Source of the DNA: a virus
Taxonomy: Duplodnaviria; Caudoviricetes
IMG/VR virus record: IMGVR_UViG_3300031949_001696
DNA length: 64,000 nt
Reading direction: 5' to 3' (one strand)
Shown here: piece after piece, positions 3,970 to 29,448 of the stretch
Layout of the letters: each line of letters begins with the position of its first letter
How positions within the stretch are numbered: position 1 is the first letter of the stretch
Program-made: the position numbers and the translations under genes
Notes under the pieces: model-generated
What the model was told of the DNA's origin: nothing
What the model saw: only the letters and a program-made list of their open reading frames with translations
The model's database searches: none

Positions 3970-4800
3970 TCAGCTCGACGGCGACTTCGTAGCTTGAGAG
4001 CCGATCAGCAGCTCGTGATCGAGTCGCGAGAGATCCGCGAAACGATGCAGCCCCGTCTTGTACTCATCAGGGATGCCTTCGAGCCCAAACCGCGCGCCGA
4101 GGACCGCACCCGCGATCGCACCTCGAGTGTCGGTATCGCCACCGAGCTTGATGGCCGCGATCACGCCATCTCGAAAACTATCGTGGTGAAGCGCGCAGTA
4201 GATCGCGGTCGCGGTGATCTGCCACGCGTTACCGCGGCGGCCCGCACTTGCGTTCATGAATTCTTCTGGGCTCGCGCCCAGGGACAACGTGATGCTCGCG
4301 CGAATCAGCGCCCCTTCGACGTGTGTCTGTGGATGTTGGCTGCCGCTACGTCGCGAGAAGCTAATCAGTCTGTCGATCACGTGCGGCAGGATGGCGCGGC
4401 GTGTGACGCCATCCTGAAGTGCGAGGCTGACCGTCATCGCGACCGCGAAGCTCGCCGCGATGGCTTCTGGATCTGCGTGCGTGATGTACGCGTCCGATCT
4501 GCACGCGTTAAGAAGCGCCGCTCCGTTTTTGTAGAACGCGCCGATCGGAGCAGCCCGCATCGGTGGAGCGCTGCCGACCTTGTGAGGATCGTCGAACGCT
4601 ATGCCGCTATGTTGCCAGCGCACGCCCTCGCCCAGCGCTTCCATCGCCAGCCGCGTTGTTCCGCCCATGCCGTGCGGTGTCCCCTGCGACCATGCGAGGT
4701 AGCGCCTGGCGACGTCGGCGCCGTCGAAGCCGTGACACGCGATCAGCGACGTCGCGAGGCATTCGGCCATCTCGGTGTCGTCCGTAAAATGTCCGGCCAG
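3970..4800 (-). pseudogene. ADP-ribosylglycohydrolase (ARH/DraG family), C-terminal ~275 aa; N-terminus lies at 29302-29448
   Basis: LAGHFTDDTEMA, MRAAPIG, TH, GGDTDTRGAIAGA motifs; the GDALG N-terminal motif is absent here. Confidence 0.85.
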
Positions 4801-4871
4801 TCCTCCTGTTTCAGTTGCTCGCGCAGCTCGCGAATCTGCGCGTCGGTGATCGTGCCGGCCGTGAGCTTCAC
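4798..4871 (-). pseudogene. N-terminal half of a 'TITDxQIREL...CAEILNAR' family gene; C-half at 29446-29602
   Basis: VKLTAGTITDAQIRELREQLKQED then loses family similarity. Confidence 0.75.
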
Positions 4872-5260
4872 GTACCGCTCCTGGCGTTGAGGATCTCGGC
4901 GCAGCGCGCGCGAACCTGCTCCTTGGCGCGCGGAATCTCGGCCTCGGTCGCGCAGCCGTAACCGATATACGTGCCGTCGGGCAGGGTGATGCCCACCGAC
5001 CACACGCCTAGCTCGCCGTTGTACTCCGCGAGGATCTGCTCGTTCGTGATCAACCGCAACGCACGCGCGTTGAACAGCTCGGCGCAGTGGGCGCGAGCCT
5101 CCCGGCGATCTTCCGTGCTCCAGCCAGGCAGCGTCGCCACGGTCAGCTCGATGGCAGCGATCTCGTCCGCGTAGAACAGCTCGCGGATCTGATCGTCGGT
5201 GATCGTGGCGGCGGTGAGCTTCGCGGCATTATCTGCACGGGAAGTGATCAAGTCGCCCAT
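4868..5260 (-). CDS. 'TITDDQIREL...CAEILNAR' family protein (two units)
   Basis: KLTAATITDDQIRELF...CAELFNAR...CAEILNAR. Confidence 0.7.
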   Translation of the reverse strand: MGDLITSRADNAAKLTAATITDDQIRELFYADEIAAIELTVATLPGWSTEDRREARAHCAELFNARALRLITNEQILAEYNGELGVWSVGITLPDGTYIGYGCATEAEIPRAKEQVRARCAEILNARSGT

Positions 5261-5622
5261 GGCTCTGCTCCTCGCTCGTCCCAGAGTTGCTCGAATGCCG
5301 ATTCTCCGGTGTCGGGATCTTTCCCGGCCCGCGCCGCGGCAGTGCGCCAGTATGCCCGGGCGACTTCTTTGAGACGTAGTGCTTCGGAGATCTGTGCGGC
5401 GCTCACGACGTGCAGCTCGATCTGGACATCTGGCACCTGGAATAGATTGTGTTCGGACGCCTCGGCGATCACCTGGGCGTGCGCGTCCTGCATGCTCGTC
5501 GCGCGTACGAACACAGCACGCCGGAATTTGGCTGATCCGGTCGTCGTTATTGCCAGGAATGGCGCCTTGTCGTCGTTGAGGAATTTCCTCGCGTCCTTGC
5601 GCGCCTTAGATCTCGCTTTCAC
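5248..5622 (-). CDS. Hypothetical protein
   Basis: Coupled ORF from [10 protein letters not shown]. Confidence 0.5.
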   Translation of the reverse strand: MKARSKARKDARKFLNDDKAPFLAITTTGSAKFRRAVFVRATSMQDAHAQVIAEASEHNLFQVPDVQIELHVVSAAQISEALRLKEVARAYWRTAAARAGKDPDTGESAFEQLWDERGAEPWAT

Positions 5623-5780
5623 GGACAGCCCCCGAGCATGATGGTGGCGAGGACGAAGAGGAGCGCCACGACCGCCCACGCGGTCAACGAGCCCTCGGTA
5701 GGCGAAGAGCACTGTTGCTCGCGCTCGGCGGCGGCGTAGAACGTGATCGAGCGATCGGGGCCGTAGATGGGATCATTCAC
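5619..5780 (-). CDS. Small membrane protein
   Basis: C-terminal [16 protein letters not shown]; overlapping start/stop. Confidence 0.5.
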
Positions 5781-6358
5781 GAGGGGCTCCTTTCTTCGTT
5801 GGCCTTCTTGAGCGCAAAGAACAGCTCGCCTTGCTCGATCGCGTCGTCGATCGCGACATGCGTGTGCGGACGGCTCTTCGACACGTACTTCTTCATCGTC
5901 TGCTTGGTGACCTCGCGGTACCCGCAGCGCATGAGCGCCATCGCGTAGGTCTTGATGTCGAGCGCGGAGAACGAGAACGGACTCTTGCCAGATCCAAGGA
6001 ACCGGATCAGGTACCAATAGACGAATAGGAAGTCGAAGCCGGCCGGATATCCGACGAACACAGGCTTGCCTCCGCCACGCTCCGCCACGCTCTTGACCCA
6101 GCTTGCGAACATCGGCATCGCGACGTCGGGCGAGATCGGGCTAGCGCGACACGCCTTCCACGCCTCGGGCTGCGTCTCCCACCACTTCATGGTGTCTGCG
6201 TCGGAGATCGCGCCGCGCAGCTCCTCAAGGTTGATCGTGTACGTGTCGATCATCTTGCCGGTACCGTCGAAGGCGGCGGCGCCCAACGACAGCATTGAGT
6301 TGATGCCCGGAATGGGCCCGTCGGTCTCGATGTCCACGCTGAAGTAGATTTCGCTCAT
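5777..6358 (-). CDS. DEDD 3'-5' exonuclease (DnaQ-like / Rv2179c-like)
   Basis: SVDIETDGP (ExoI), AGFD (ExoII), THVAIDDA (ExoIII). Confidence 0.85.
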
Positions 6359-6561
6359 GTCAAGGTTCCCGGTTCGATTCGTTTTCCGAGGATCGCGTCG
6401 AGCGCGACCATCAGGTCGTCGATATCTGCGCGCTCGATCACGATCTCGGCGCTGGGCGTATGCGTCTTCGAGATCCGGAGGTTCCCGCCGCCGGTCTCCT
6501 CGACGAGGATCGATCCGACGACGTGACGTGATCGACTAGTGATGGGGCTATTGATCGTCAC
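6355..6561 (-). CDS. Hypothetical protein
   Basis: Coupled [11 protein letters not shown]... Confidence 0.5.
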
Positions 6562-6749
6562 GAGGTTTTCTCCGCCTGCGCGGCAGCGCGCTCCAGGTTT
6601 TGGGCGTGCAGATCGCTGCCGTGCTCGCGGAGCTTCGTTGCCGCGAGACGGTACGCAGCGGCGACGACGTCTCCGCCTCTCGCGTGGCTGCTGTCGTACT
6701 CGCGCGCGGCGGCGAGCAGGATCTTGGTGGCGTGCCAGGTGTCGTGCAT
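6558..6749 (-). CDS. Hypothetical protein
   Basis: ORF with AAGGA RBS. Confidence 0.5.
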   Translation of the reverse strand: MHDTWHATKILLAAAREYDSSHARGGDVVAAAYRLAATKLREHGSDLHAQNLERAAAQAEKTS

Positions 6750-6764
6750 GGGCGTGTCCTTGTT

Positions 6765-7046
6765 TCAGTAGTAGGGGTCGTATTCGCGGACGATCGGAGG
6801 CTCGTAGCCGTCGAGGTAGATGACGGGTGCCAAGAAGCCGGCGCGCTCGCGCAGCCCGCGCTTCATGTCGACGAGGAACTCGTCGGTGATCGCGTAGCGA
6901 TCTTGCGGAGCGACCTTGATCACGATTTCGAGGTCGAAGCGTCCGTGGATGCGCGCGAAGTTCGCGGTCTCCTTGTCCTTGCAGCGCGTCTCGATCTGGT
7001 TCATGAGCCAATCGAGGTGCTCCTGCGAGATGTCGTTGGTTTTCAT
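6765..7046 (-). CDS. Hypothetical protein
   Basis: MKTNDISQEH..., AGGAG RBS. Confidence 0.55.
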   Translation of the reverse strand: MKTNDISQEHLDWLMNQIETRCKDKETANFARIHGRFDLEIVIKVAPQDRYAITDEFLVDMKRGLRERAGFLAPVIYLDGYEPPIVREYDPYY

Positions 7047-7285
7047 TCGGACTTCTCCTTGATGACGATGGCTTCGACCGTCGGCGTGTCGAAGAGCGCG
7101 CGTACGGCCTTCATGGGCACTTGAATAATCAGCTCGCGCACGAGCTTGTCTTCGCGTCTCTTGAGGTACTCGGGTGGAAAGCCGCCGTTCTCGTCGACGG
7201 TGTACTCGTCGACAGCGGTGACGAGCCATGGAAGGTCGTCGCCGTCGCCCGCGTGCCAGAGGGTGTAGATCATCATCGGGGTCAT
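7043..7285 (-). CDS. Hypothetical protein
   Basis: Coupled ORF. Confidence 0.55.
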   Translation of the reverse strand: MTPMMIYTLWHAGDGDDLPWLVTAVDEYTVDENGGFPPEYLKRREDKLVRELIIQVPMKAVRALFDTPTVEAIVIKEKSE

Positions 7286-7626
7286 GGGCGCACCGTCCCG
7301 ACGACGTGGACCTCGGTTAGCTTGTCGCCACTAAAGCGCGGGCCTCCGACCTGCCAGCGCACGATGCCGCCCACGACGGATCGCTTCGCCGCCGATACGA
7401 CTTGCCCGCGGCGGGTCGTGAGATCGAAGTCGGCCGTGATCGGTTCCAGCTGGTGCTCGAACACGGCGCTCGGCATGCTCCAGCGACCGTCGGCTGCCGA
7501 GGGATTTGACGAGTGCTGCCAGCGGCAGACGCGGAGCTTGCCGGCCTTCTGCGATGGCTCCAGTACGATGACGATCTTGAACGTCTTGCACGTCCGATCG
7601 CGGCAGATCTGGCCTGAGTCTATCAC
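7282..7626 (-). CDS. Hypothetical protein
   Basis: Coupled ORF. Confidence 0.5.
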   Translation of the reverse strand: MIDSGQICRDRTCKTFKIVIVLEPSQKAGKLRVCRWQHSSNPSAADGRWSMPSAVFEHQLEPITADFDLTTRRGQVVSAAKRSVVGGIVRWQVGGPRFSGDKLTEVHVVGTVRP

Positions 7627-8018
7627 GAAGGATCCTTGGCGAGTTCGCGCTGGTCAGCTTCGCCCCGCGGGAGACGCACGAACGTGCAGTTTTTCCAACG
7701 CCGCTCGCGCCCGTCGAAGGCGCGGATCGTGTACTCGCTTTCGCCCTCGATCGCGATCAGTTCACCGACGCAATCGATCGGCCTGCCGCGGATGTTGGTC
7801 ACCTCCAGGACGAGCTGACCAGGCGCGATCTCGCGCATCCAGTCGAACAAGCGGCGAGCCGCGGGCGTAACGTTGTGTGACGATCTCCAGAGCTGCTCGC
7901 CGGTCGCAACGAGCATGGCGGCGAGGTTTTCGACGGCTTCACGCTTCTCGTATTCGAGTCGCTGACAGCCGTCGCAATCGGGATACGGGTCGCCTGGGAG
8001 CTGTGGATCGTCAGTCAT
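7623..8018 (-). CDS. Hypothetical protein with LPGDPxPxCxGCQRxEYEKRE module
   Basis: Module also present near 30310-30390. Confidence 0.6.
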   Translation of the reverse strand: MTDDPQLPGDPYPDCDGCQRLEYEKREAVENLAAMLVATGEQLWRSSHNVTPAARRLFDWMREIAPGQLVLEVTNIRGRPIDCVGELIAIEGESEYTIRAFDGRERRWKNCTFVRLPRGEADQRELAKDPS

Positions 8019-9004
8019 TTGGTTTCTCCCCGGACCTTGCCGCGACCCTTGCGGTAGCGGAATGGACGCCGGGTCCGGTTGGCCTCGATCAGGTCGTCGC
8101 GTTCGAGGTTCGTCAGCGCGACGATCACAGTCGTAGCCTTGACGGCAGTGCCGCGGTCGGCAGCGCTTTGCACGATGTCGCGCGTTGTCATCCACGGGAA
8201 GTCGCGCGGCATCCCCAGGATCTCAAGCACGAGCGCTGTCGTCGTTCCCGCGCGCGGCGGCGGGCGTAGTGGCCGATCCCACGACGCGCGAGGGTGCTCG
8301 TGCCAGATCTTGGGTGCCGCGTCGAGTGCGGCTTTGTGTGCGAGATTAGCGGAAGCGTAACGCCGGATGTCGCCGCTCTGCGTCCGCAGGAAGCTGCCGT
8401 CGACGTAGGCCATCCAACGCGGCAGCTCGCTCTGGGGCGCTTCGTCATAAACGACGCCCACGCCCTCACACGGAGGTCGATCTGTGTCCTCGAAGATGTT
8501 CTTGAGGTGAGGGCAGCCGCAGTACCGGTGCTCGCCCCAGATGCGCTCGCACCCGGCGTTGCACAGATCGCAGCGGATGCTCGGTGCGGACTCGGCGTCA
8601 ATCTGGGAAAGCGCGGCCATGGAGGCGGCGATCGCGTCGATGACGTTGTCGCCCGTGAGCTTCCACTCGGGCCTGTGGATCACGGTCGGATCGTAACTGC
8701 ACAGATCGAGCCCCGGAGACCACTTGCGGTGGTCGTGGCCGTAGCCGTCGTGGCCTATGAGCGTTCCGAGCCCATAGCGCGCTGCGAACCGACCGAGACC
8801 GGCGATGAACCGTGGATCGCTCTCGGAGAGGCGATCTGGGGTCGCGTCCCAGAACTCGACTAGCGGCTCCGCGCTGTCGTGCACGATACCGTGATGCCAG
8901 AAGCCGTCGTTTCTGCCGTAGGTATCTCCCTCGCGCACGATCCGAACGTTGAAGGCTCGACCAACATCGTTCACGACGCGCGTGACGATAACCGGCGCGT
9001 CCAT
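8015..9004 (-). CDS. Multidomain hypothetical protein (N-domain paralogous to 9678-10049; C-terminal winged-HTH-like)
   Basis: AFNVRIVREGDTYG...EPLVEFWDA...DPRF..GLG shared. Confidence 0.65.
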   Translation of the reverse strand: MDAPVIVTRVVNDVGRAFNVRIVREGDTYGRNDGFWHHGIVHDSAEPLVEFWDATPDRLSESDPRFIAGLGRFAARYGLGTLIGHDGYGHDHRKWSPGLDLCSYDPTVIHRPEWKLTGDNVIDAIAASMAALSQIDAESAPSIRCDLCNAGCERIWGEHRYCGCPHLKNIFEDTDRPPCEGVGVVYDEAPQSELPRWMAYVDGSFLRTQSGDIRRYASANLAHKAALDAAPKIWHEHPRASWDRPLRPPPRAGTTTALVLEILGMPRDFPWMTTRDIVQSAADRGTAVKATTVIVALTNLERDDLIEANRTRRPFRYRKGRGKVRGETK

Positions 9005-9005
9005 G

Positions 9006-9251
9006 TCAGTTGCTCTCTTCGCGGATCTGCGCGGCCTGCGCACTCTGCGAAAGCACGTAGACGACCGCGTATGCGAGGTAGCGGGGGTCGTTTTCCTGGC
9101 CGAGCTTCTCGTTGATCGCGGGCATGTTCGGCTCGATCACGCGCGTCAGGATCTGCGCCGTTGCGTCGAGATCACCGTGGATTTCGTACAGCCGCGCAGC
9201 TTCGTTGATCTGCGCTTCGGTCAGAAACTGCGGCAGGGTGAAGGTCTTCAC
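9006..9251 (-). CDS. Hypothetical protein
   Basis: ORF in operon-like array. Confidence 0.55.
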   Translation of the reverse strand: MKTFTLPQFLTEAQINEAARLYEIHGDLDATAQILTRVIEPNMPAINEKLGQENDPRYLAYAVVYVLSQSAQAAQIREESN

Positions 9252-9514
9252 GACGACAGCCTCCTCACGGTCTCGGCGACGAGAACGAGATCGCCCGTTG
9301 GCTCACTGGGTTCGCGAGTCATTTCGGCTGCTCGACGCTTGGCCTGCGCGAAGCTGGGCCAGTCGCCGCGGTACTCGTTGTCGACGTAGAGTCCCCAGCC
9401 GGTGACTTTGGCGCGCTCCTTGAGACGGACCAGACACGCGCGACCGTCCTGTTGGTCGTAGCCGCCGGGTGCCTTGCGCCACCACGTCGGATCGAGGGGT
9501 CGCAGCGGCTTCAC
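9248..9514 (-). CDS. Hypothetical protein
   Basis: Coupled ORF VKPLRPLDPTWW. Confidence 0.5.
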   Translation of the reverse strand: MKPLRPLDPTWWRKAPGGYDQQDGRACLVRLKERAKVTGWGLYVDNEYRGDWPSFAQAKRRAAEMTREPSEPTGDLVLVAETVRRLSS

Positions 9515-9681
9515 GACAGCGCTCCTTCGATGCGAGAGCCGCACTCGGACCACCACTTGTCGAACGCCTTTTCGGCCTCGCGACCTACGGCGTCGTGATT
9601 GCCGAGCGAGCTTCGACCGTGCAAGTAGCCTACGACGAACAAGCGAAGCGCCTCGCGGCGGCGTTGATCTTCGGACTTCAC
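9511..9681 (-). CDS. Hypothetical protein
   Basis: Coupled ORF VKSEDQRR. Confidence 0.45.
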   Translation of the reverse strand: MKSEDQRRREALRLFVVGYLHGRSSLGNHDAVGREAEKAFDKWWSECGSRIEGALS

Positions 9682-10698: not shown

Positions 10699-10743
10699 GT
10701 TACTGCCGTTCCTGTGCGCTCTGCGCTGGCGGCGTCTTGGTTT

Positions 10744-11599: not shown

Positions 11600-11600
11600 G

Positions 11601-11930: not shown

Positions 11931-12084
11931 GGCATTTGTTCAGAGCAGCTCGCGTGCCGGCCGCGCGTTCGTATAAAGGTGCGACGGGAAACTCTGGGTA
12001 GCTCCATACCCGTCTCTGGCCGACAGCTGTCGCACTGAGCTCGTGGCGCTCGAGACACGGGTAGCAGATCACCCAGGGCGCAGG

Positions 12085-12333: not shown

Positions 12334-12352
12334 GTTCTATCGTCCAGCCTTT

Positions 12353-13939: not shown

Positions 13940-15469
13940 TTACGCGCCTTTCTGAGCAGTGCGCGGAGCCAATCGCGCTCGGCCATAAAGCAGTCTCTCA
14001 ATAGCCGCGCTAATGGCTAGTTTGTCTTTCTGCCAGTTACGAACGGTGTCAGGAGACACGGCCAGAAGATCAGCGGCAGCTGAGATACTCGCGCCATGAA
14101 ACGTCGGGCTCGCTGCGGACCGAGCTGCGCGCAGGATGCTGCGCACGCATTCTTTGTCTCCGCATGACTTTCGTTTCGCGAAGACGCACGGACTGTCGCC
14201 GTCCCGTGGTTCAAGCAGCACACTACAGCCTGGACATCGGCGCCCATCAACAAGCTTCGTGGTGGTTCGTACCAGAGAGGCGTATTTGCTCGCACATGTC
14301 CCTTCACCACAGGTCTTTCGCCCTACGAAGTTTTCTAGCCTTTCCCCGGCCCTCCGCTCAATAAGCTCATCACAGATTGGACAGTGCCTCGCGACAACCA
14401 CGGTGACGGCTCTTTTGAGCGCGCTTGCTTTGGTCGCGCAGCCTGCTTTCATGCCGCACGTCTTCCGCCTCATGAAAACGCACGGCGTTTCGCCGCCTTT
14501 TCGTTTGAGTGGTTTCGTACAGCTCGGGCAGCACCGCCCTGCGATAACCTTCGTAGTCGTCTGGAGGTTGCTTGCGCATTTTTGGCCGCACGTCGAGCGC
14601 TTCGCGAATTCGTATAGCGGTTCGCCCTCTTTCCGCTCGAGCAACTTCTTGCAACTCGGGCGTGGGCAGCGACGCCCCGCGACGATCTTCGTCGTGGTGC
14701 GTACCATAGACTTGTACTTGCTCACGCACGCCTTATCACAGCACGTGGCGCGTTTGGAAAACCACGTCAGGCTTTCCCAGGCCCTCCGCTCAAGCACCGC
14801 GTCACAGCTTGGACAACAGCGTCCCGCAACAACCTTCACGGCGGGTTTTTGTGCGGCAACCCACGCAAAAGCGCACTTACGACTGCACGTCTTTCGCTTC
14901 ACGAACCTGTGCTGCGCTTCGCCTTCCTTCTGCTTGAGCGTTTTTCTACAACTCGGACTCGGACAGCGGCGACCGGTAACGACCTTCGTAGTCGTCCTGA
15001 ACTTGCTCAGGCACTCGTCTCGGCCGCACGTCTTCCGCTTCGCGAATGACCACGTCTTCTCACCCTCTTTTTGCCTGAGCAGCTTCTTGCAGCTCGGACA
15101 GCGGCGTCCAACGACGATCTTCGTCGTGGTCCTCACCGCGGACAAGAGTTTGGCCCCGCAGCCCTCTTTATTATGGCCGCACGTCTTCCGCTTCGCGAAC
15201 GCAGACAGTGACTCGGCCTTTTTTTGCTTGAGCAGCTTCTTACAACTCAGGCAACGGCGACCGACGACGATCTCGGTGACAATTCTTTTCGCCGCGCCAA
15301 GCTGATAGACGCACGTGCGATCGCACGTCTTTCTTTTTGCGAAGTCACACGGCTTCTCTCCGTTTTTGCGCTTGAGCTTCTTCTTGCAGCTCTCACAACG
15401 GCGCCCTGTGACATCCTTCGTAGCGATCAGTGGCGCAGTGAGCTTGGAGCGGAGGGAGGAGAGCTTCAC
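13940..15469 (-). CDS. Tandem Cys4 zinc-finger repeat protein (9 repeats of ~48 aa) with C-terminal HTH
   Basis: Repeat TTKxVxGRRCPSCxKxLxxKxGE-xxxx-FAKRKTCG..C; GGAGG RBS before GTG 15469. Confidence 0.8.
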   Translation of the reverse strand: MKLSSLRSKLTAPLIATKDVTGRRCESCKKKLKRKNGEKPCDFAKRKTCDRTCVYQLGAAKRIVTEIVVGRRCLSCKKLLKQKKAESLSAFAKRKTCGHNKEGCGAKLLSAVRTTTKIVVGRRCPSCKKLLRQKEGEKTWSFAKRKTCGRDECLSKFRTTTKVVTGRRCPSPSCRKTLKQKEGEAQHRFVKRKTCSRKCAFAWVAAQKPAVKVVAGRCCPSCDAVLERRAWESLTWFSKRATCCDKACVSKYKSMVRTTTKIVAGRRCPRPSCKKLLERKEGEPLYEFAKRSTCGQKCASNLQTTTKVIAGRCCPSCTKPLKRKGGETPCVFMRRKTCGMKAGCATKASALKRAVTVVVARHCPICDELIERRAGERLENFVGRKTCGEGTCASKYASLVRTTTKLVDGRRCPGCSVLLEPRDGDSPCVFAKRKSCGDKECVRSILRAARSAASPTFHGASISAAADLLAVSPDTVRNWQKDKLAISAAIERLLYGRARLAPRTAQKGA

Positions 15470-15551
15470 ACGCCCTCCCAAAGCTCGGCGATCTGCCTCG
15501 CGGTGAGTACGGCGGCGCGTTTCACGAACTCGCCACCAAAGCCATTCCAGC

Positions 15552-17054
15552 TCACCGCACACCTTCTTGAGTGGTGCGCGGAGTCGGGCGTGCTCGATTA
15601 CAAAGGTCTTTCGGCTGGAGGGACTTCTCGATAGCCGTGTCGATAGTCATTCCACAGCTCCGCCAATTATGAATCGTAGAGCTTGTCACACCTAGAAGTG
15701 CAGCGGCAGCTGAGACGTCCGTCCCATGAAACAGTTTCTTATACTGACACTCTTCATCTCGACATAACTTTCGTTTTGCGAAACTGCTCGCGCTCTCGTT
15801 ATTCCGTTGTTCAAGCAGCTTTCTACATCTCAGGCATCGCCGCCCAGCGATGACCTTTGTAGTGGTGCGCACCCTGGATTTATTCTTACGAACGCATACT
15901 TCATCACCGCACGTCGCTCGTTTTGCAAAAGCACTCGGACTTTCCCCGGCGCTCTGCTCAAGAAGCTCAGCGCAGATTGGACAACGGCGCCCTGCGACGA
16001 TCTTCGTGGTAGTTGTGTGTGCCGCTCCCAGCAGGACGGCACACTCACCGCCGCATGTCTTTCGTGCCGCGAATGCACTTGGCGCCTCCCCCTTTCTTGG
16101 TTTGAGTAGCTTCGTACAACTCGGACAGCGGCGCCCGACGACAACCTTCGTGGTCGTCAGGAACCTATACACACATCGTTTTTTACCGCACGTTTTCCGC
16201 ACAGCGAACGCGGCTACGGGCTCGCCCTCTTTTCGCTTGAGCGACTTCCTACAACTCGGACAGCTTCTCCCTGCGACGACCTTCGTGGTGGTCAGCACTT
16301 CGGCCAAGTGTTTTGCTGCGCAGCCCGCTTTCTTGCCGCACGTCTTTCGACTCAAAAAGTCATTCCGTGACTCTCCTTCTCTTCGCTTCAATGCTTTTTT
16401 GCAGCCGGGTGCCAGACAAAAACGCGCTGGATCGCTCTTCGCCCAGGTCGCGGATAGCAGGCTGCCATAACATTTCTCCCCGCACGTCTTCCGTCCCGCG
16501 AAGGCGTTTAGCGCCTCGCTCTTTCTTCGCTTGAGCAGCTTCCTACAACTCGGACAGCGTCGCCGCGTGACGGTGCGAACAACTCCGCCGCTGTGAATGA
16601 CATGTTGGTGCCAGCTCACGCACTTCTTTCGACCACACGTCTTCCGTCTTGCAAATGAGCTTAGCGACTCGCCTTTTTTTCGCTTGAGCAGCTGCTTACA
16701 ACTTGGGCAACGTCGCCCCGCGACGACCTTGATGGTGGTCCTTGTCGCCTTGCTAAGTTTTGCCGCACAGCCTGCTTTATGACCGCACGTCTTCCGCCGC
16801 GCGAAGAAAAAAGGCGATTCGCTCTCCTTTCGCTCAAGCACTTTGTCGCAGATCCGACAACAACGCCCCGCGACGATCTTGGTAATGAACCTTTTCGCCA
16901 TGCCCAGTAGGGCCGCACAGCCCGCTTTCTTACCGCACGTCTTCCGACTTGCGAAGTTACCGAGCTGCTCTCCCTCCTTCCGCTTGAGCACCTTGCCGCA
17001 GACCAGGCAACGACGCCCTGCGACGATCTTGAAGGAAGAGCGTTGCGCCATCAT
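15552..17054 (-). CDS. Tandem Cys4 zinc-finger repeat protein (9 repeats) with C-terminal HTH, paralog of 13940-15469
   Basis: Same repeat; ends FHGTDVSAAAALLGVTSSTIHNW. Confidence 0.8.
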   Translation of the reverse strand: MMAQRSSFKIVAGRRCLVCGKVLKRKEGEQLGNFASRKTCGKKAGCAALLGMAKRFITKIVAGRCCRICDKVLERKESESPFFFARRKTCGHKAGCAAKLSKATRTTIKVVAGRRCPSCKQLLKRKKGESLSSFARRKTCGRKKCVSWHQHVIHSGGVVRTVTRRRCPSCRKLLKRRKSEALNAFAGRKTCGEKCYGSLLSATWAKSDPARFCLAPGCKKALKRREGESRNDFLSRKTCGKKAGCAAKHLAEVLTTTKVVAGRSCPSCRKSLKRKEGEPVAAFAVRKTCGKKRCVYRFLTTTKVVVGRRCPSCTKLLKPRKGEAPSAFAARKTCGGECAVLLGAAHTTTTKIVAGRRCPICAELLEQSAGESPSAFAKRATCGDEVCVRKNKSRVRTTTKVIAGRRCLRCRKLLEQRNNESASSFAKRKLCRDEECQYKKLFHGTDVSAAAALLGVTSSTIHNWRSCGMTIDTAIEKSLQPKDLCNRARPTPRTTQEGVR

Positions 17055-20838: not shown

Positions 20839-20842
20839 CGCA

Positions 20843-21805
20843 TCACTTTTTGCGGAACTTCTTGGGCAAGAGATCGAGGAACTGCTTCGCCGGCGCATTG
20901 GGGCTGTCCGCAAGCTTCATGTAGCGCTCGGTCGTGTCCCGCTTGCTGTGCAGAAGGCTCCGTTGCACGACGTCGATCGGAACGCCGCGCTGCTTGGCGA
21001 TCGTAGCGACGGATCGTCGGAACGCGTGCGGCGTGAACTTCGAGTGGTCGACGAACTTCGCCCGAGCTGCCTGCCTCTTGACCGCGTTTCGCACGGTGCC
21101 CACGCCGATACCCCTCGCACCCTTCGCGGTGCCGCGGAACAAGGGACCGGCCGTGATGCAGAACTCCGCGGCCCAGGCCCGCAGGAGCTTGGCGAGTGGC
21201 GCGACAAGCTCGATGCGGCCGTACTTGCCGCCCTTGACGCGAACACGAAGAAACCAGTTGTCCGAACCAGCCTGCGGCTCGAAGGCGTCGATCGCGACAC
21301 GCGCGACTTCGGCTCGGCGGAGGCCCGTCATCGCGAGCGTCATCGCTATCAGGTAGTCGCGGCGCTCGACGAAGCTGTCGTCGTCGGGGCCGGCACCGAG
21401 GAACTTCTCTAGCTCTTCGGCCGACAGCCACGGTGTCTTCAGCTCGGCGTTGTCGCCCTTGGGGTTGCGAGCCTCGCGCGCTGGGTTCGCGACGACGAGC
21501 ACGCCCTCTCGAGCGAGCGCCGCGTAGACGGCGCGGATCACGGCAAGTGCACGAGCGCGGGTGCTCTGGCGTTTTCCGCTCGATCGGAGACCGAGCAAAT
21601 AGGTCTGCACATCGAACGTGGTTGCGGCGAGCGGGGATGTCCCCTTCGCGGCGAGGTACGAAATGAAGCGCTGCCACTCCTCGCGGTACGCGCGAACGCT
21701 CTCGGGGCTGCCGAGGTCGGAGAGGATCCGGGCGAAGGCGGCGGCGACGCGCGGATCGGCACTAGGGACGACGACGAGGGCATTGGTGGGGTCCTGGGCT
21801 CTCAT
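20843..21805 (-). CDS. XerC/D-like tyrosine recombinase
   Basis: TGLRRAEV, VKGGK, PHAFRRS, LLHS, TTERY: R-K-H-R-H-Y set present. Confidence 0.9.
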   Translation of the reverse strand: MRAQDPTNALVVVPSADPRVAAAFARILSDLGSPESVRAYREEWQRFISYLAAKGTSPLAATTFDVQTYLLGLRSSGKRQSTRARALAVIRAVYAALAREGVLVVANPAREARNPKGDNAELKTPWLSAEELEKFLGAGPDDDSFVERRDYLIAMTLAMTGLRRAEVARVAIDAFEPQAGSDNWFLRVRVKGGKYGRIELVAPLAKLLRAWAAEFCITAGPLFRGTAKGARGIGVGTVRNAVKRQAARAKFVDHSKFTPHAFRRSVATIAKQRGVPIDVVQRSLLHSKRDTTERYMKLADSPNAPAKQFLDLLPKKFRKK

Positions 21806-21817
21806 TCGGGCACTTAT

Positions 21818-21848
21818 ATTTGACGATAATGGGACCTTACCGGCAAGT
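21818..21848. promoter_or_regulatory. dif/res-like recombination core site ATTTGACGATAA-TGGGACC-TTACCGGCAAGT
   Basis: 12-bp imperfect inverted arms (9/12), 7-bp spacer, 13 nt upstream of the recombinase start. Confidence 0.55.
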
Positions 21849-21937
21849 GCGACGTAAACTATTGAAATCTATGTGACGCTTATATGAAGTGTCTCAAATC
21901 GATCACGATCGCACGATCGCGCTGGTAAGGTCGGGGG

Positions 21938-23633: not shown

Positions 23634-24208
23634 TGGAAACAGCCTTCAAACTCGCGAAGTGCGCCGTGCTGACCTGCCCCAACGAGGCAGATCCGCGCTG
23701 GTTCGCGCGTGACGTGAACGATCACCCCGTCATGATCTGCGACGGCCACGTGCCGATGCCGAAGCCCGCCGAGGTGGCCGCGCGCCCGCTGGATCCCGCC
23801 GCGCTGGACCTCGCGGCGCGCATCGTCCGCAATGGCTACTCACCGACGCCCAGTGAAGTCGAGCGTGTTTCCCACGCGCTGCTCGACGAGCAGGAAGAAC
23901 TGGCCGAGCTGCGCGACATCGCGGGCCTCGTGAGCGATGCCGACATCAACGCGCTGCCGCTCGAGCTGCTGGTGGTACGGCAGCGTTGGTTGGCCGCGCG
24001 CCACGCCAAGGAAGTGGCCGAAGCCGCGGTCGCTCTCGCCGCGATGGGGTGCCAGCAACGTTTCCCATCAACGATTACTGCGACGCAACTCGTGGTGATG
24101 GAGCGTACCTGGCTTGGCCTTCCCAAGCCGAACGCGAAGTGCTTGCTCAAGCTCGGCCATTCTGGGCCGCACATGTGCGAGCAACCGCCGCCGCTGGAAC
24201 AGCCATGA
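23630..24208 (+). CDS. Hypothetical protein
   Basis: AAGGAG RBS, coupled. Confidence 0.55.
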   Translation: MMETAFKLAKCAVLTCPNEADPRWFARDVNDHPVMICDGHVPMPKPAEVAARPLDPAALDLAARIVRNGYSPTPSEVERVSHALLDEQEELAELRDIAGLVSDADINALPLELLVVRQRWLAARHAKEVAEAAVALAAMGCQQRFPSTITATQLVVMERTWLGLPKPNAKCLLKLGHSGPHMCEQPPPLEQP

Positions 24209-24335
24209 CCAAGACCGCCTACGCCAAGCGTTTGTCGGACGAAGAAGTCGCCGAGCAAACGAAAGACATGGCGCCCGAGGATCGCGAGGAGTACCGCATC
24301 GAGAACGCGACCAGCCCCTTGTTCGACATGTGGCT

Positions 24336-25181
24336 TCAAGAGCTAGGCGCGCGAGCCCCGCGCGCACGTTTCATCCGCTCTAGTTTCAGTTCTAACTCGG
24401 CCTCCATCTCCTTGGCCAAGTGAAACAGGTCGGTGCTCTCGATGTCGCGAGCGAACCGGGACAGAACTCGTCGCAAGTCTGTCGCTGAGGCCAGAAGCGC
24501 GTCGTCGCGCTCAACAGCATTTCGCACGTCGTCTACCGACATGTCCCGCGTCAAGAGGTGCGGAAGCGCAAGGCGCCGAACTTCGCCGGCAAGATGAAAC
24601 GCCGCGCGAGTCGCGGTGATCTCCTCGGCGTCTCCGAGGGTCCGCATCATTTCATGCGTGTAGATCCATGCCTGATCTGGCGCGATCTTGGATAAATCAA
24701 CGACGCGCGACGGTGAGTGCCCGTTGTAGAGCCTGCTGATGTCGACGCGGTTGCCTAGGAACAGATCGAGCATCACGTAGCCGATCAAGCCGAACCCCGG
24801 CGAGCCCACCTCGATTTTCGCTTTCTCTTGCTGCCTGTCGAAAATCACGTACGCGTGATCTTCGTCGATTTCGCCATCGCCAGCTCGACGCCGCGCGATC
24901 CAGCTCTCGGCATCTCCCGCCTTGCGAAACGTGACCCAAGGCTCGGAGACCCCGTCCTCCAGTGCGATCACGCAGTCGTCCCACATGATCCGGATCTCCT
25001 GTCGGATCGACTCTGGGGATCCCACAGGTCGCGCGGTTACGCTTAACGTGCAGCCGCATTCGAAACCGTGTTGGTGCGCTGACGTCGGAGAGGCTTCCGT
25101 CCATCGAAGATGGCCGCCCGATGGATTTAGGAAGAAGTTGTCCCGCGCCACGCTAATGCGGTGCTGCTCTGTGGTCGCCAT
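24336..25181 (-). CDS. Hypothetical protein, opposite to array orientation
   Basis: 281-aa ORF; TACCAT-6nt-ATG; 3' end overlaps the 24205 ORF. Confidence 0.6.
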   Translation of the reverse strand: MATTEQHRISVARDNFFLNPSGGHLRWTEASPTSAHQHGFECGCTLSVTARPVGSPESIRQEIRIMWDDCVIALEDGVSEPWVTFRKAGDAESWIARRRAGDGEIDEDHAYVIFDRQQEKAKIEVGSPGFGLIGYVMLDLFLGNRVDISRLYNGHSPSRVVDLSKIAPDQAWIYTHEMMRTLGDAEEITATRAAFHLAGEVRRLALPHLLTRDMSVDDVRNAVERDDALLASATDLRRVLSRFARDIESTDLFHLAKEMEAELELKLERMKRARGARAPSS

Positions 25182-25359
25182 GGCGCGATGGTAATCCGAG
25201 GCGGCGCGGGGCGGGGCGGCTCATAGTCCTCCTGGGTAGCTGGAGACCCGGATATTTCGGGCTCCGCTCCATGCAACTTGGCGATGGCGCCGTGTAGCTT
25301 GAGACACGGGTGCGGGGCTACCCAGGTTTTGCGATCGCGCCCTTGCGCGCCGAACAGAT

Positions 25360-25375
25360 CGGCACGCGGGCAGCA
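25360..25375 (+). promoter_or_regulatory. sigma54-like promoter CGGCACGCGGGCAGCA
   Basis: GGCACG...GCA with GG-N10-GC; ATG 14 nt downstream. Confidence 0.45.
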
Positions 25376-25387
25376 ATACCTGCCGGC

Positions 25388-25651
25388 ATGAAGGAACTGC
25401 TCCTCACCGCCGAACAGCTCGCCCTCGTGGTCGAGCCCGTCGTGACCGCGGCGCCTGCCGTGCTCGACGACGCCGCGCTGATGGCGATGCCGCTGGTCGA
25501 CGCCAAGCGCCTCGTCGCGGCCGAGTTCGAGCGGCGCTACCTCGTGCTCCTGATGGAGCGCGCGGAGGGTTCTGTTTCGGAGGGCGCACGGCTGTCGGGC
25601 CTCGATCGCACCAACTTCCGCCGTCTACTCCAGCGGCACGGACTTCGCTGA
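25388..25651 (+). CDS. Stand-alone Fis-type HTH (C-terminus of sigma54 enhancer-binding proteins)
   Basis: AKRLVAAEFERRYL...GSVSEGARLSGLDRTNFRRLLQRHGL. Confidence 0.8.
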   Translation: MKELLLTAEQLALVVEPVVTAAPAVLDDAALMAMPLVDAKRLVAAEFERRYLVLLMERAEGSVSEGARLSGLDRTNFRRLLQRHGLR

Positions 25652-25659
25652 GAACCGCC

Positions 25660-25914
25660 ATGCGCGACAAGACAGAAATCGCGGCGAGCATCGAGCACTG
25701 GGAGCGGCTCGCTACGGAGGCCGAGTCCCAAGCGCAGTGGGATCGCGACCACGGTCTCGATCTCTCGAAGCCCGGATGCTCTGCGGGCGACTACCGCGCG
25801 CAGCTGTATCGGCGATGCGCCGAGACCCTTCGCCTGGAAATGCAGACGGGCCTCCCGCACTGCACGACTTGTCTCGGGGCTCATCCCAACCATCACCACG
25901 GCCACCGTGGATAA
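25660..25914 (+). CDS. Hypothetical protein
   Basis: ORF in array. Confidence 0.5.
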   Translation: MRDKTEIAASIEHWERLATEAESQAQWDRDHGLDLSKPGCSAGDYRAQLYRRCAETLRLEMQTGLPHCTTCLGAHPNHHHGHRG

Positions 25915-26147
25915 CAACGGATCGCCAGGAAGAAGAGTCATGTCGAAGAAGCGCACGAAGGACACCAAGAATGTCAGGCCCACGGTTACGATCTTGACCG
26001 TCACGCAGGTCTACATGCGGGGCGAGACCAGCGAGCTGACGCTCGCGTTCGCCTCACGCGAGCGGGCTCTGGAAGCGATCCAGGCTCACGTGATTAACCC
26101 TGAAGCGATCACGACGATCAGCATTCGTACGCTGGCGGTCCTGGCCG

Positions 26148-26387
26148 ATGCGTAACATCCCCGACAAGCTCGCCATGCTCCGCGCCGTCACGCGCAAGGC
26201 GCTCGCTGCTCGCGACGCGATCGACGACTGCTTCTCGCCCGAGTGGCGCGACGCGCACGAGGCGACAGTCGCCGCGTGCAAGCTCGCGACCGCCGAGATG
26301 GAGCGGCTCGCCAAGGATCCCAAGACCCGCTACGGCAGCTGGCGCACGTCGGCCGACGTCGAGCTGATGGCGCTCGGACTTCTCTAG
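26148..26387 (+). CDS. Hypothetical protein
   Basis: ORF in array. Confidence 0.5.
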   Translation: MRNIPDKLAMLRAVTRKALAARDAIDDCFSPEWRDAHEATVAACKLATAEMERLAKDPKTRYGSWRTSADVELMALGLL

Positions 26388-26411
26388 CATTCTAGCAAGG
26401 AACAAATCGCG

Positions 26412-26768
26412 ATGATGACGACACCGAACAACCTGGGTTTTTCCGAGTGCGACAAGTCTCGCGCTCCGAGCGGCTGGGGGCACACGTTCCATCACACCGA
26501 GCCGCAGCGGCGCGTCCCGTGCGTGCTCGGCGACATGCTCGCGCCGCGCAGCTCCGACGACATCCCGCCGATCACGCCCGAGGCGATGGCCTCGGTGCAG
26601 GCCGCGCTGACGCTGCTCGCGAACCTCATCGCCGATCGTGATCTTGCCCTGTTCATGGGCAGCTTCGAGCGCCTGGAGGACCACCGCAGCAAGGCGAGCG
26701 ACATCCTGCTCGTCGCCAAGGGGTTGGCCGGTATCCTCCGCGTCTCCTCGCCGGAGCAAGCTCCGTGA
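26412..26768 (+). CDS. Hypothetical protein
   Basis: AAGGA RBS. Confidence 0.5.
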   Translation: MMTTPNNLGFSECDKSRAPSGWGHTFHHTEPQRRVPCVLGDMLAPRSSDDIPPITPEAMASVQAALTLLANLIADRDLALFMGSFERLEDHRSKASDILLVAKGLAGILRVSSPEQAP

Positions 26769-26980
26769 TCCGCGCCATCGCCCTCATCATCGATGCCGGC
26801 TCGCCCGCGTTCGATTGCGCGTACCAGATCCTCACGTGTCCCGCCGATCCCGAGATGGAACGCTACACGTTCACGGCGCCACGCGAGGTGACCCGCCGTC
26901 GCATCGGCCAGTACGCCGTCGTGAAGTTCTGTCCCGACGATCAATTCGCCTACGAGTGCAAGGAGGCACTACAACCGTGA
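26765..26980 (+). CDS. Hypothetical protein
   Basis: Coupled ORF. Confidence 0.5.
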   Translation: MIRAIALIIDAGSPAFDCAYQILTCPADPEMERYTFTAPREVTRRRIGQYAVVKFCPDDQFAYECKEALQP

Positions 26981-27279
26981 AGACCACCGACGACTACACC
27001 GATGACGATGCTGCCGACACGCTGCGCTTCCGCCGCGTCGATCTCGACTTCGAGGCCCCGGCCGACCCGGACGCGACCTCGATCTATGACCTCACACCCT
27101 CGCCGGTGAGCTACGTCGGTCGCAGCCGCGTCTCGCCGCGTCGCCGCCGCCAGATCCGCGACACGCGCGAGAACGTCCTGCGGCTTCGCGCAGCGCTCGC
27201 GGCGGGTTGGGACATCGCGCCCGAGCTGGCGCACGAGGAGCAGCGCCTGTCTGGCCTGATGACGGCAGATCGCCGGTAG
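26977..27279 (+). CDS. Hypothetical protein
   Basis: AGGAGG RBS, coupled. Confidence 0.5.
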   Translation: MKTTDDYTDDDAADTLRFRRVDLDFEAPADPDATSIYDLTPSPVSYVGRSRVSPRRRRQIRDTRENVLRLRAALAAGWDIAPELAHEEQRLSGLMTADRR

Positions 27280-27558
27280 GTGATGACCATGCGCCAATAC
27301 ACGTTCCGCATCTTCCTTTTCGAGCAGCCCAAAGACGGCAACGCGCTCGATCATCGCGAGGTCGCGTCGTACGAGGGTATCACCGCTCCGCCGTGGGTGC
27401 CTCCGCAAGGCTCCTACTTCCGGTTCCGCGATCCGAATCCACCGGGCCGTCCCGCTGATCATCGCGAGGTCGCTGGATACGTCGATCAAGTCGTGACGGT
27501 GTTCTACGGCACGAGCACGACGATCGAGATCTATCTCAAGGACAAGAAAAACACATGA
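27280..27558 (+). CDS. Hypothetical protein
   Basis: ORF with internal DHREVA duplication. Confidence 0.5.
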   Translation: MMTMRQYTFRIFLFEQPKDGNALDHREVASYEGITAPPWVPPQGSYFRFRDPNPPGRPADHREVAGYVDQVVTVFYGTSTTIEIYLKDKKNT

Positions 27559-27917
27559 CCGACGGGACAAAGCGTCACTGCATCCCCGATCCGTTCCCCG
27601 AAACGATCGGGGTCTCCGCCATGACGATCTTCGTCCCCGATGACTTCCGCGGCGACGCCGAGATCATCTGGTGGTACCCTGGCATGAGCGACGACAAGTA
27701 CAAGCAGCGCATCACATGCAGCGCCTCCGCGCTGCTCCAGGGCGTGCTTCGTGACGTCCGCGGCGCGCGTCCCACCGCGGACGAGCATCTGGTCGCGGCC
27801 GACCAGGTCGGCGCTCGCGCGGTTGCACTCGTCGTGCACGCGTTCTACAAGCTGCGGATCGAGAGTGCAGCGCGTCTTGAGGCCGCGTACCAGTGGCGGT
27901 CCTACACGAAAAAATAA
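27555..27917 (+). CDS. Hypothetical protein
   Basis: Coupled ORF. Confidence 0.5.
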   Translation: MTDGTKRHCIPDPFPETIGVSAMTIFVPDDFRGDAEIIWWYPGMSDDKYKQRITCSASALLQGVLRDVRGARPTADEHLVAADQVGARAVALVVHAFYKLRIESAARLEAAYQWRSYTKK

Positions 27918-27995
27918 CGCGCGACCCATGCAATTCCAGAGGCGCTCGCGCGCATGTCTTTGGGAAGCAGCTGGGCTGCAACAAGGAAACGCATC

Positions 27996-28214
27996 ATGAA
28001 TATCAAGAGCATCAAACAGGGTTCGATCGTGGAGACCACCGTGGGTGTGGGTCTCGTGAAGCGCGTCGGCGGAACGCATCCGCCGAGCGTGCAGATCGCC
28101 GTCGTCACGCCCATTCCTCGCGGCATTTGCAACGTGCGTCCTCGTGACGTGTTGCGTGTGCTGTCGGAGGCCGAGGTCGCCGAGCTGCGCGCCCAAGGAC
28201 TGAATCTCGGATGA
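27996..28214 (+). CDS. Hypothetical protein
   Basis: AAGGA RBS, MNIKSIKQG. Confidence 0.5.
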   Translation: MNIKSIKQGSIVETTVGVGLVKRVGGTHPPSVQIAVVTPIPRGICNVRPRDVLRVLSEAEVAELRAQGLNLG

Positions 28215-28894
28215 TGCCCGACGACGAATTCGAGCGCGAGCACCCGAGCTACGGGATCCTTCACATCTCGCGCACGAGCGGCGGGACGAGTGCGATCCGG
28301 CTCTTTGGCTCGCCGCTCGCGACGCACTACGGAACGATCCGGCTGACGATCTCCAAGGGCAAGTGGATCCACGGCCTCAACCACGATCGCTACTACGGCA
28401 TGAACAAGGACTTCATCGAGGTCGAGATGTCGGCCGCACAGTTTGCCGACGCGATCACGAGCCTCAACATGGGCAGCGGCACCCCGTGCACGATCCGATA
28501 CGTCGACGGCGAACGCGTTGCCGCGCCGCCAGTCCACGCGACCGAAGCCGAACACATCCGTGACAACTTCGAGGGCACGCTCGACAAGTACAAGGCCAAG
28601 GCGCGCACCTATCGCAAGCGCATCGAAGAACTCGCGAGCAAGCTGTCCACGAAGGCGCGCGAGGAGATCCGGATCGCGCTCGACGTGATGGAGCAGCAGC
28701 TCGCCTCCAACGTACCGTTCGTGGTCGAGCAATTCCAGGAGGCCACGTCGCGCATCACGACGTCAGCCAAGGCCGAGGTCGACGCCTTCGTTACCGGGGT
28801 CGTCCGCGCCGCAGGGCTGCAATCGATCGCGGAGGGCCGTCTGCCGTCGCTCCTGCCGAGCGGCGATGTGAAAGAGCCGGAGGACAAGCCGTGA
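28211..28894 (+). CDS. Conserved phage-type hypothetical protein
   Basis: HPSYG...LFGS...IEVEMSAAQFADAITSLNMGSGTPCTI. Confidence 0.65.
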   Translation: MMPDDEFEREHPSYGILHISRTSGGTSAIRLFGSPLATHYGTIRLTISKGKWIHGLNHDRYYGMNKDFIEVEMSAAQFADAITSLNMGSGTPCTIRYVDGERVAAPPVHATEAEHIRDNFEGTLDKYKAKARTYRKRIEELASKLSTKAREEIRIALDVMEQQLASNVPFVVEQFQEATSRITTSAKAEVDAFVTGVVRAAGLQSIAEGRLPSLLPSGDVKEPEDKP

Positions 28895-29301
28895 GCAGCA
28901 TCGACATCTACGCGGTGTTGGAGAAGTTTCGGCACGATTGGAACGCGTATGAAGGCAGCGCCGTGCAGGTCATCGATTCGATCACCGAGCACCTGCGCGC
29001 GGCCGAGCAGACGGGCTACCTCGGGACGCTCTACCGCACTGACTTCGAGGTCGAGGGCACCGGCGCGTTCCCGATCGACATGCTGCGCTACACGAACGCG
29101 TGGCCCAAGGGCGAGATCGACTCGCAGGCGATCGAGGACTCACTCGACGACGCAGTTGCCACGGCGTCACCGCGCCGCGGCCCGCGCACGATCACGCTAA
29201 CGAAGTACCACCGCGATCCCGAGCCGCAGCTCGCGGGCGATCGCTGGCAGGCCAAGTTCCGGTGGCGCGTCGCGCGCGTCATCGAGACGGCGGTGATCTA
29301 A
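28891..29301 (+). CDS. Hypothetical protein
   Basis: VEGTGAFPIDMLRY motif; coupled. Confidence 0.6.
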   Translation: MSSIDIYAVLEKFRHDWNAYEGSAVQVIDSITEHLRAAEQTGYLGTLYRTDFEVEGTGAFPIDMLRYTNAWPKGEIDSQAIEDSLDDAVATASPRRGPRTITLTKYHRDPEPQLAGDRWQAKFRWRVARVIETAVI

Positions 29302-29448
29302 GTGACTGCCACGCGAACATCCGCAGTTCTCGTCGGCCAGGGCATCGGCGACGCGCTTGGAATGCCGTTCGAAAAGCTCGACGACGAAGTGCATCCCGAT
29401 CTCGCGACGTGGGACGGCTCGTATCAGCCCGGTACGTGGCACGAGCTG
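29302..29448 (+). pseudogene. ADP-ribosylglycohydrolase N-terminal 49 aa (rest at 3970-4800, minus strand)
   Basis: LVGQGIGDALGMPFE...GTWHEL. Confidence 0.85.

Follow-up and report, generated by a model that had tools for sequence, protein, structure and literature searches.

A 24.65-kb inversion halves two genes of a giant soil virus and is very probably a one-off illegitimate event

Two halved genes and their surroundings

The window, i.e. the whole stretch of 64,000 nt that was analysed, comes from a giant GC-rich soil virus in which a 24.65-kb segment is flipped and two genes, an ARH gene and a small gene of the TITD family, are each halved. The features at the locus are listed below by their position in the window; L008 and L011 are contigs of a sibling strain and P0124 is an intact 75-aa TITD-family protein.

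3423-3956, minus: 177-aa gene downstream of the ARH C-terminal piece, collinear with L011 (L011 3564-4071 = 3957-3423)
3970-4797, minus: ARH C-terminal piece (AGHFTDDT...GGDTDT...), 275 codons, PF03747 positions 45-287 of 287 (E 5e-52)
4743-4871, minus: chimeric 42-aa ORF across the left junction, the N half of TITD being followed by an out-of-frame tail
4797-4871, minus: N half of the split TITD gene, 24 codons plus the Trp codon 4799-4797 (L008 998-1113 = 4912-4797; P0124 reads ...KQEDW)
4798-29448, no strand: inverted segment; collinearity with the un-inverted L008 and L011 stops exactly at both ends
4868-5260, minus: 130-aa TITD-family gene (L008 1-877 = 5590-4821)
20843-21805, minus: intact tyrosine recombinase (PF00589 8.8e-14, PF02899 1.3e-10, phrog_1 1e-35)
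21806-21937, no strand: AT-rich intergenic region within the inverted segment, divergence point of both gene arms
28891-29301, plus: 136-aa gene upstream of the ARH N-terminal piece, collinear with L011 (L011 1881-2443 = 28886-29454)
29302-29454, plus: ARH N-terminal piece (GIGDALGMPFE...WHEL, possibly also PR; ARH frame 29302-29448), PF03747 positions 2-48
29302-29499, plus: chimeric 65-aa ORF across the right junction, the N piece of ARH being followed by an out-of-frame tail
29435-29453, plus: palindrome with 7-bp stem and 5-nt loop on the right junction, mostly ARH coding sequence (T-W-H-E-L-P)
29450-29602, plus: C half of the split TITD gene (HAKKG...CAEILNARSPT), 90% identical to residues 26-75 of P0124
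29599-29859, plus: 86-aa TITD-family paralogue, the next gene after the split one, from the L008 alignment

The preliminary description, made from the letters of the window, had divided ARH into an N piece on the plus strand (29302-29448) and a C piece on the minus strand (4797-3970), and the family test agrees with it: together the two pieces span the PF03747 model (DraG/ARH3-like) at full length. They abut on this model as well as on intact relatives, whose residues 2-48 align to 29311-29451 and residues 49-311 to 4797-4009, i.e. up to both breakpoints. GDALGMPFE is found in the N piece, the metal-site motifs TDDT and GGDTDT in the C piece. As it stands, ARH is not one uninterrupted gene; its pieces differ in strand and are separated by 24.6 kb, and no ATG-started ORF of the C piece is longer than 266 aa, the start of that one lying past TDDTE. 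The C piece contains zero stops and zero frameshifts. Compared with the intact L011 gene, the ARH pieces have a dN/dS of 0.16, which matches the value for intact gene versus intact gene (0.13), and the event would therefore be recent, as judged from the sequences. The low dN/dS of the pieces is also compatible with a gene that is still used now and then.

For the TITD gene a complementary split had been proposed, with the N half ending at 4801 and the C half reaching 29602. The split and the extent of the C half hold, but the end of the N half was off by a base or two (4871-4800 plus TG at 4799-4798). From the C half onward L008 remains aligned to the window (L008 1117-1523 to 29453-29859), and in the ancestral order the 130-aa TITD gene would stand directly upstream of the rejoined one. 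The two chimeric ORFs recur in other assemblies: a protein identical to the 65-aa product is called on a 3,773-bp ERZ27256953 contig, and an SRR9005073 Logan contig has a called 42-aa ORF at the corresponding position.

The segment ends in the triplets CAG (4798-4800) and CTG (29446-29448), just as described beforehand. Also in line with that description, the divergence point lies inside the segment, with genes diverging from 21806-21937 and unequal arms of 17.1 and 7.6 kb on its two sides, and the tyrosine recombinase within the segment is intact: it has Phage_integrase and SAM-like domains and the catalytic motifs RRAE, HAFRRS and ERY.

Assemblies, sibling strain and the two joints

The inverted form is present in a 332,853-bp JGI contig and in the MEGAHIT assembly ERZ27256953 at ENA (left junction on a 38,959-bp contig, right junction on the 3,773-bp one), and a Logan contig of 2,601 bp from SRR9005073 has it too. 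Could a contig have been misjoined, the virus being in truth un-inverted? In favour of this, the window stems from metagenome assembly, and a single read set may lie behind all three assemblies. Nevertheless, three assemblers produced identical junctions, with the ENA set giving both; no repeat at the joints is long enough to fool a k-mer assembler; and 3 nt are missing relative to the intact genes, which a misjoin of true sequences would not yield. A misassembly thus appears extremely improbable. On these assembled sequences the inversion is genuine and not the artefact of a single assembler, with three assemblies in agreement, perhaps from one read set.

The un-inverted arrangement is found in the sibling strain (JGI sample 3300036859), whose two contigs have 84-94% nucleotide identity to the window. 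L011, covering the ARH site, connects window positions 27925-29454 to 4785-3423 via an intact 316-aa ARH (P0125), and L008, covering the TITD site, connects the reverse complement of 5590-4797 to 29453-36271 via the intact TITD gene of P0124. Both sites are un-inverted there, and no repeats occur at them in the two contigs. Other loci were set aside as guides to the ancestral order: in five more distant ones (L001, L002, L004, L006 and L007) ARH stands in other contexts, and two found via the 177-aa neighbour (L009 and L010) have one common domain only and are not syntenic. A search for viral loci via the 136-aa neighbour found none, and neither junction region had a blastn match in the phage collection.

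Flipping the segment in silico brings both genes back into frame, with 324 aa for ARH and 75 aa for the TITD protein, as had been predicted. The further claim that no base is gained or lost fails, however. The two present chimeras sum to 1203 nt versus an expected 1206 (325-aa ARH plus 75-aa TITD), i.e. they are 3 nt short. The flipped ARH reads WHEL-AGHF versus WHxLP[A/R]GH in relatives; it lacks the Pro that 101 of 107 full-length homologues have at this position, where the spacing to TDDT is invariant. The flipped TITD protein reads QED-C-HAKKG versus QED-W-YAKKG in its 90%-identical relative, with Cys for Trp.

Homology at the joints amounts to 1-5 bp, and the 3 bp common to the segment ends (CTG/CAG) are within chance expectation. 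The ancestral joint sequence was deduced from relatives with 84-94% identity, which have either Ala or Arg as the key codon. This leaves a margin of a few nt for each breakpoint (left 4794-4799, right 29448-29454) and makes the length of the microhomology uncertain; at the right junction the alignment reaches through 29454 with L011 and through 29450 with L001. The right joint may accordingly be parsed with an overlap of 5 nt (CACGC, 29450-29454) or of 1-2 nt, and the left joint with 2 orphan nt or an overlap of 1-3 nt. Under either parse the net loss is 3 nt (the alternative parse having a 2-nt and a 1-nt overlap).

No long inverted repeat or recombinase-type arms were found at the junctions, which confirms the earlier impression, and the joints are likewise free of transposons, IS and duplicated elements; the flanks are the two gene halves. 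The nearest inverted repeats are paralogue sequence (4824-4900 with 29570-29646); the left copy is 26-102 bp into the segment from its junction, the right copy 122-198 bp beyond the other junction. A homologous exchange between TITD paralogues (4824-4900/29570-29646 and 5174-5222/29601-29649) was considered and rejected, as the crossover lies outside those repeats. The 7-bp hairpin previously noticed on the right junction does exist, and L001 and L011, whose ARH genes are intact, have partial versions of it (4-5 of 7).

Origin of the inversion

We regard it as very probable, from what the sequences of the joints suggest, that a single, recent and accidental illegitimate inversion of the microhomology type killed two accessory genes. 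The ancestor would have had ARH on its minus strand and, at a distance of 24.6 kb and across the divergence point, the small TITD gene on its plus strand. Both genes would then have been broken and the inner segment rejoined in reverse by illegitimate recombination, the pathway possibly being a template switch during replication, the annealing of short homologies or end joining. Comparison with the closest relatives allows the right joint to be read as a crossover within the 5-nt CACGC common to both genes; at the left joint, 3 nt of CACGC would be gone (TGG-CC-GGA versus TGG-CACGC-GGA). The outcome would be the death of two accessory genes and a pair of short chimeric ORFs. With the divergence point inside the segment, all genes continue to be directed away from it, and this kept polarity is probably why the virus tolerated the flip. 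The preliminary description had offered a one-off microhomology inversion as one of two readings, and the 1-5 bp of homology, the 3 missing nt and an intact sibling without repeats support it.

Its other reading, an ON/OFF switch for an ADP-ribose eraser, finds no such support. In a programmed, reversible switch, a recombinase, e.g. the resident one, would toggle the eraser together with the TITD gene; an intact tyrosine recombinase within the segment, two genes that are in frame again after a flip and ARH pieces without decay (dN/dS 0.16) are what such a device would lead one to expect. But inverted arms are lacking, with merely 3 bp common to the ends, and the exchange was non-conservative, so that the 'ON' ARH would be without its near-invariant Pro and the 'ON' TITD protein would carry Cys for Trp. 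A flip back would not recreate the wild-type genes. The sibling strain has both genes intact with no repeat at the sites, and protein collections represent the present strain by the inverted form only. In viral_contigs and metagenome_contigs, exact-pattern scans matched neither un-inverted joints nor the present left joint; these collections evidently contain neither this strain nor L008, and their blanks carry no weight for either reading. A small un-inverted fraction of the population may exist in the sample. The recombinase gene, moreover, lies 7.6 and 16 kb from the segment ends, and the AT-rich region beside it (21806-21937) has no words of at least 8 nt in common with the junction sites. 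We thus consider a switch very unlikely, and give equally little credence to a reversible flip that needs almost no site homology and for which the one-codon-shorter ARH is a working 'ON' allele.

A recombinase, whether the resident one, a host enzyme or another viral one, might also have misfired once on two pseudo-sites, without any switch being involved. If the key codon is parsed as Arg, both ancestral sites read CTG[C/G]CACGC and agree at 8 of 9 positions, and a quasi-palindrome is present at the ARH site. On the other hand, 3 nt were lost at one joint and conservative recombinases do not lose nucleotides, the crossover is not in the palindrome spacer, and the junctions are unlike the region beside the recombinase gene. 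Nor does a shared 7-mer within 30 nt carry much information, since about 6% of random 30-mer pairs from the window have one; the 7-nt TGGCACG, found at ARH 29437-29443 and at the ancestral TITD breakpoint, was dismissed as a pairing site on the same count. Such a misfire seems unlikely, and nothing implicates the tyrosine recombinase at 20843-21805.

Significance and comparison with known systems

Read as a one-off illegitimate inversion, the locus records, base by base, how illegitimate recombination acted in an uncultured giant soil virus, with the ancestral state documented in a sibling. It suggests that such a genome can tolerate a large inversion when this spans the gene divergence point, and that this strain, at least in its habitat, can do without its ARH eraser and one of its TITD paralogues. 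For annotation it means that the 266-aa, 65-aa and 42-aa ORFs in public databases are fragments or chimeras and not genes. It is a clear but ordinary mutation, and no new kind of system is revealed.

Site-specific invertible switches include those of the Hin, Gin and Cin serine invertases, the FimB/FimE-controlled fimS switch and the invertons of Bacteroides. As in these, the inverted DNA segment includes a recombinase gene and its flip alters gene expression; unlike these, the present segment has no inverted repeat sites, the exchange was non-conservative, relatives have no such sites either, and typical invertons are tens of times smaller. In bacterial chromosomes, inversions around the replication origin or terminus are known as 'X-alignments'. 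These resemble our case in that the divergence point is included, so that gene orientation relative to it is kept, but the arms here are unequal (17.1 and 7.6 kb) and the divergence point is at most a possible replication origin. Spontaneous RecA-independent inversions and rearrangements, illegitimate and with short homology, occur in bacteria and phages, and it is these that the present inversion matches in its breaks inside unrelated coding sequences, in its 1-5 bp of homology with few nt lost, in joints without a mobile element or recombinase site and in being private to one lineage. Illegitimate recombination has been put forward as the process underlying phage genome mosaicism (PMC2327257). 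What sets the present inversion apart from the usual illegitimate ones is that both reciprocal joints are kept and readable to the base, that the virus is giant and uncultured, and that the segment is large (24.65 kb) and extends across the divergence point of the genome.

Exchange of halves between two genes

An ADP-ribosylglycohydrolase gene (ARH, PF03747) and a small TITD-family gene are each cut once in the window and have exchanged their halves, the pattern expected from an inversion of ~4798-29448 (24.65 kb); a reciprocal half-swap of two genes cannot be due to chance. The four parts are:

29302-29448, plus strand: ARH N piece, translation VTATRTSAVLVGQGIGDALGMPFE...GTWHEL
4797-3970, minus strand: ARH C piece, translation AGHFTDDTEMAE...GGDTDT..., ending at a stop
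4871 (start GTG), minus strand: N half of the TITD gene, opening with VKLTAGTITDAQIRELREQLKQED
from 29450, plus strand: C half of the TITD gene, HAKKGPRTWARV...CAEILNARSPT

The preliminary description had placed the ARH parts on opposite strands, and Pfam agrees: the N piece matches positions 2-48 of PF03747 (ADP_ribosyl_GH) and the C piece positions 45-287 of 287 (E 5e-52). Intact homologues (308-322 aa) align to both, with residues 2-48 on 29311-29451 and 49-311 on 4797-4009. The complementary split claimed for the TITD gene is borne out by an intact 75-aa protein, P0124, that bridges its halves.

The window (G+C 62-66%), part of a JGI contig of 332,853 bp according to the protein collection, has a dense array of short genes whose strand switches from minus to plus at ~21.8 kb; tRNA genes were not found in it. 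Since the divergence point (21806-21937) lies within the inverted segment, as had been stated, all genes are still directed away from it after the flip, which carried ~17.1 kb of plus-arm genes into the minus arm in exchange for 7.6 kb from there. The 132-nt spacer 21806-21937, exactly at the strand switch and beside a recombinase gene, is markedly AT-rich compared to the genome (~63% G+C) and possibly represents a promoter or origin region. Also within the segment, 13940-17054 encodes two large basic proteins of 540 and 500 aa that weakly match PF03119 (NAD-dependent DNA ligase, C4 zinc finger); they are adjoined by a 718-aa DEAD/ResIII helicase.

Gene order in a sibling strain and in other assemblies

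The C half of the TITD gene (50 aa), used as query, returned a single protein, P0124 (75 aa, 90% identical, ...KQEDWYAKKG...), encoded on the 5,801-bp contig L008 from JGI sample 3300036859. This contig aligns to 5590-4797 (minus), then, after 3 unaligned bases, to 29453-36271 (plus), with 86-94% identity near the junction, dropping to ~75% further downstream. The same sample holds L011 (6,014 bp), whose intact 316-aa ARH (P0125) falls in the same 90% cluster as the ARH fragment of the window; it aligns to 27925-29454 (plus) and then to 4785-3423 (minus) with 84-91% identity. As these contigs of a close relative bridge both breakpoints un-inverted through intact genes, the arrangement in the window is the derived state. 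L008 also carries the tandem row of TITD-family genes predicted for the order before the flip. This paralogue row differs between sibling and window by deletion or fusion as well: at 534-645 of L008 (window 5053-5060) the sibling has ~110 nt along with individual small genes of 104, 62 and 71 aa, whose equivalent in the window is a single 130-aa gene (4868-5260).

The flipped form occurs in three assemblies: the window's JGI contig, ENA ERZ27256953 and a Logan contig of run SRR9005073. In the ENA assembly, the left junction lies on a 38,959-bp contig, flanked on either side by at least 10 kb, and the right junction, together with the exact 65-aa chimeric ORF, on a 3,773-bp contig; the Logan contig (2,601 bp) crosses the left junction by ~200 bp. 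Since further ENA contigs from this batch are duplicates of JGI contigs, the three assemblies may share reads; they represent independent assemblers but not necessarily independent samples. A misassembly is very unlikely, given the same form from three assemblers and joints free of any repeat that could mislead them. In the ENA assembly, the ARH fragment carries a single substitution relative to the window, Ser instead of Pro at residue 62 of the 266-aa ORF (~4585-4587), in a DDPHK stretch where all close relatives aligned have Pro; this could be an early mark of relaxed constraint or strain variation.

The joints and the mechanism of inversion

Flipping the segment back at the CTG that both breaks share brings both genes into frame, as described, and yields a 324-aa ARH and a 75-aa TITD protein. 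The accompanying claim that no base was gained or lost fails, because the flipped-back sequences are not ancestral. The ARH then reads WHEL-AGHF, one residue short of the W-H-x-L-P-[A/R/S]-G found in all close relatives, and the TITD protein has Cys at the position of P0124's Trp. Among 107 full-length ARH homologues with the TDD[TS] motif, 101 have this Pro, and the spacing H-x-L-P-x-G-x-x-TDDT is fixed. The present chimeras (29302-29602 and 4871-3970) sum to 1203 nt, whereas 1206 nt would be required for a 325-aa ARH together with a TITD gene of 75 aa.

With the closest relatives as a guide (L-P-R at the ARH break in L011), ARH extends through 29454 (CTG CCA CGC) and continues at 4794 (GGA CAT), and the TITD gene extends through 4797 (TGG) and continues at 29450 (CAC GCC); CACGC (29450-29454, 5 nt) is claimed by both genes and CC (4796-4795) by neither. 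The crossover would thus lie within a 5-nt inverted microhomology, CACGC, and the reciprocal joint would have lost 3 nt (TGG-CC-GGA in place of TGG-CACGC-GGA). If the ancestor had Ala, as in the more distant ARH locus L001 (CTG CCx GCC GGA), the joints have overlaps of 2 nt and 1 nt. In either parse, the net loss is 3 nt and the homology at most 5 nt.

Of the two readings offered beforehand, the one-off microhomology inversion is favored by this short homology and by the sibling order. An ON/OFF switch, i.e. a programmed inversion, is highly improbable in view of the lost 3 nt and the lack of long recombinase arms at the junctions, which was noted earlier: the segment ends share CAG/CTG only. 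The tyrosine recombinase in the segment (20843-21805) is indeed intact, at distances of 7.6 and 16 kb from the segment ends. A one-off misfire of a site-specific recombinase on pseudo-sites is unlikely; the AT-rich region beside the resident recombinase gene has no word of 8 nt or longer in common with either junction site, and the 7-nt word TGGCACG common to the ARH and ancestral TITD breaks is a match expected in ~6% of random pairs. The 7-bp hairpin reported at 29435-29453 exists, is mostly ARH coding sequence for T-W-H-E-L-P and has weaker versions in intact relatives. The inverted repeats near the junctions, 4824-4900/29570-29646 (77 nt, 88%) and 5174-5222/29601-29649 (49 nt, 98%), are TITD-family paralogue sequences around gene starts (consecutive genes share a GTGA as stop and start), offset from the junctions and direct before the flip; in their present orientation they could seed further rearrangements. 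Taken together, we are confident that this is a real, recent, one-off and slightly lossy inversion by illegitimate recombination that killed two dispensable genes.

A second gene-splitting inversion (~180 bp) is seen at 57851-58030. The plus-strand ORF is no longer sensible past ...STNYRVDP, and the minus strand reads ...ETLQITNPVKVPPENWFVMRYRGGFLFGRMR, a GGAGG-like site and MPKKKKKSAHQLDREIFQALAED; the ends resemble an imperfect inverted repeat of ~12 nt (GAGCGCTTGAAA versus GAGACGCTTCAAA). With two such flips in 64 kb, the lineage may be prone to these events.

Age and consequences of the break

Compared to the intact L011 gene, dN/dS is 0.165 for the ARH N piece and 0.160 for the C piece, close to the 0.13 between two intact relatives, and neither piece contains stops or frameshifts. 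Nearly all divergence thus appears to predate the break, and the inversion is, by this measure, recent. The split leaves GDALGMPFE in one piece and both TDDT and GGDTDT in the other. In the C piece just one ORF opens with ATG (266 aa, MAECL...), and its start lies downstream of TDDTE. By analogy with DraG/ARH3-type enzymes, these fragments should be inactive.

ARH is an accessory gene with other genome positions in more distant relatives. At L006 9647-10927 and L007 9161-10524, the intact gene directly follows a homologue of a small minus-strand window gene (~51976-52197), so ARH has changed its genomic place within this virus group. Known phage counter-defences include ADP-ribose erasers of other folds, such as NADAR (PMC11825919), and a similar role might be surmised for the window ARH. 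The inversion itself neatly exemplifies a known process and is no new system.
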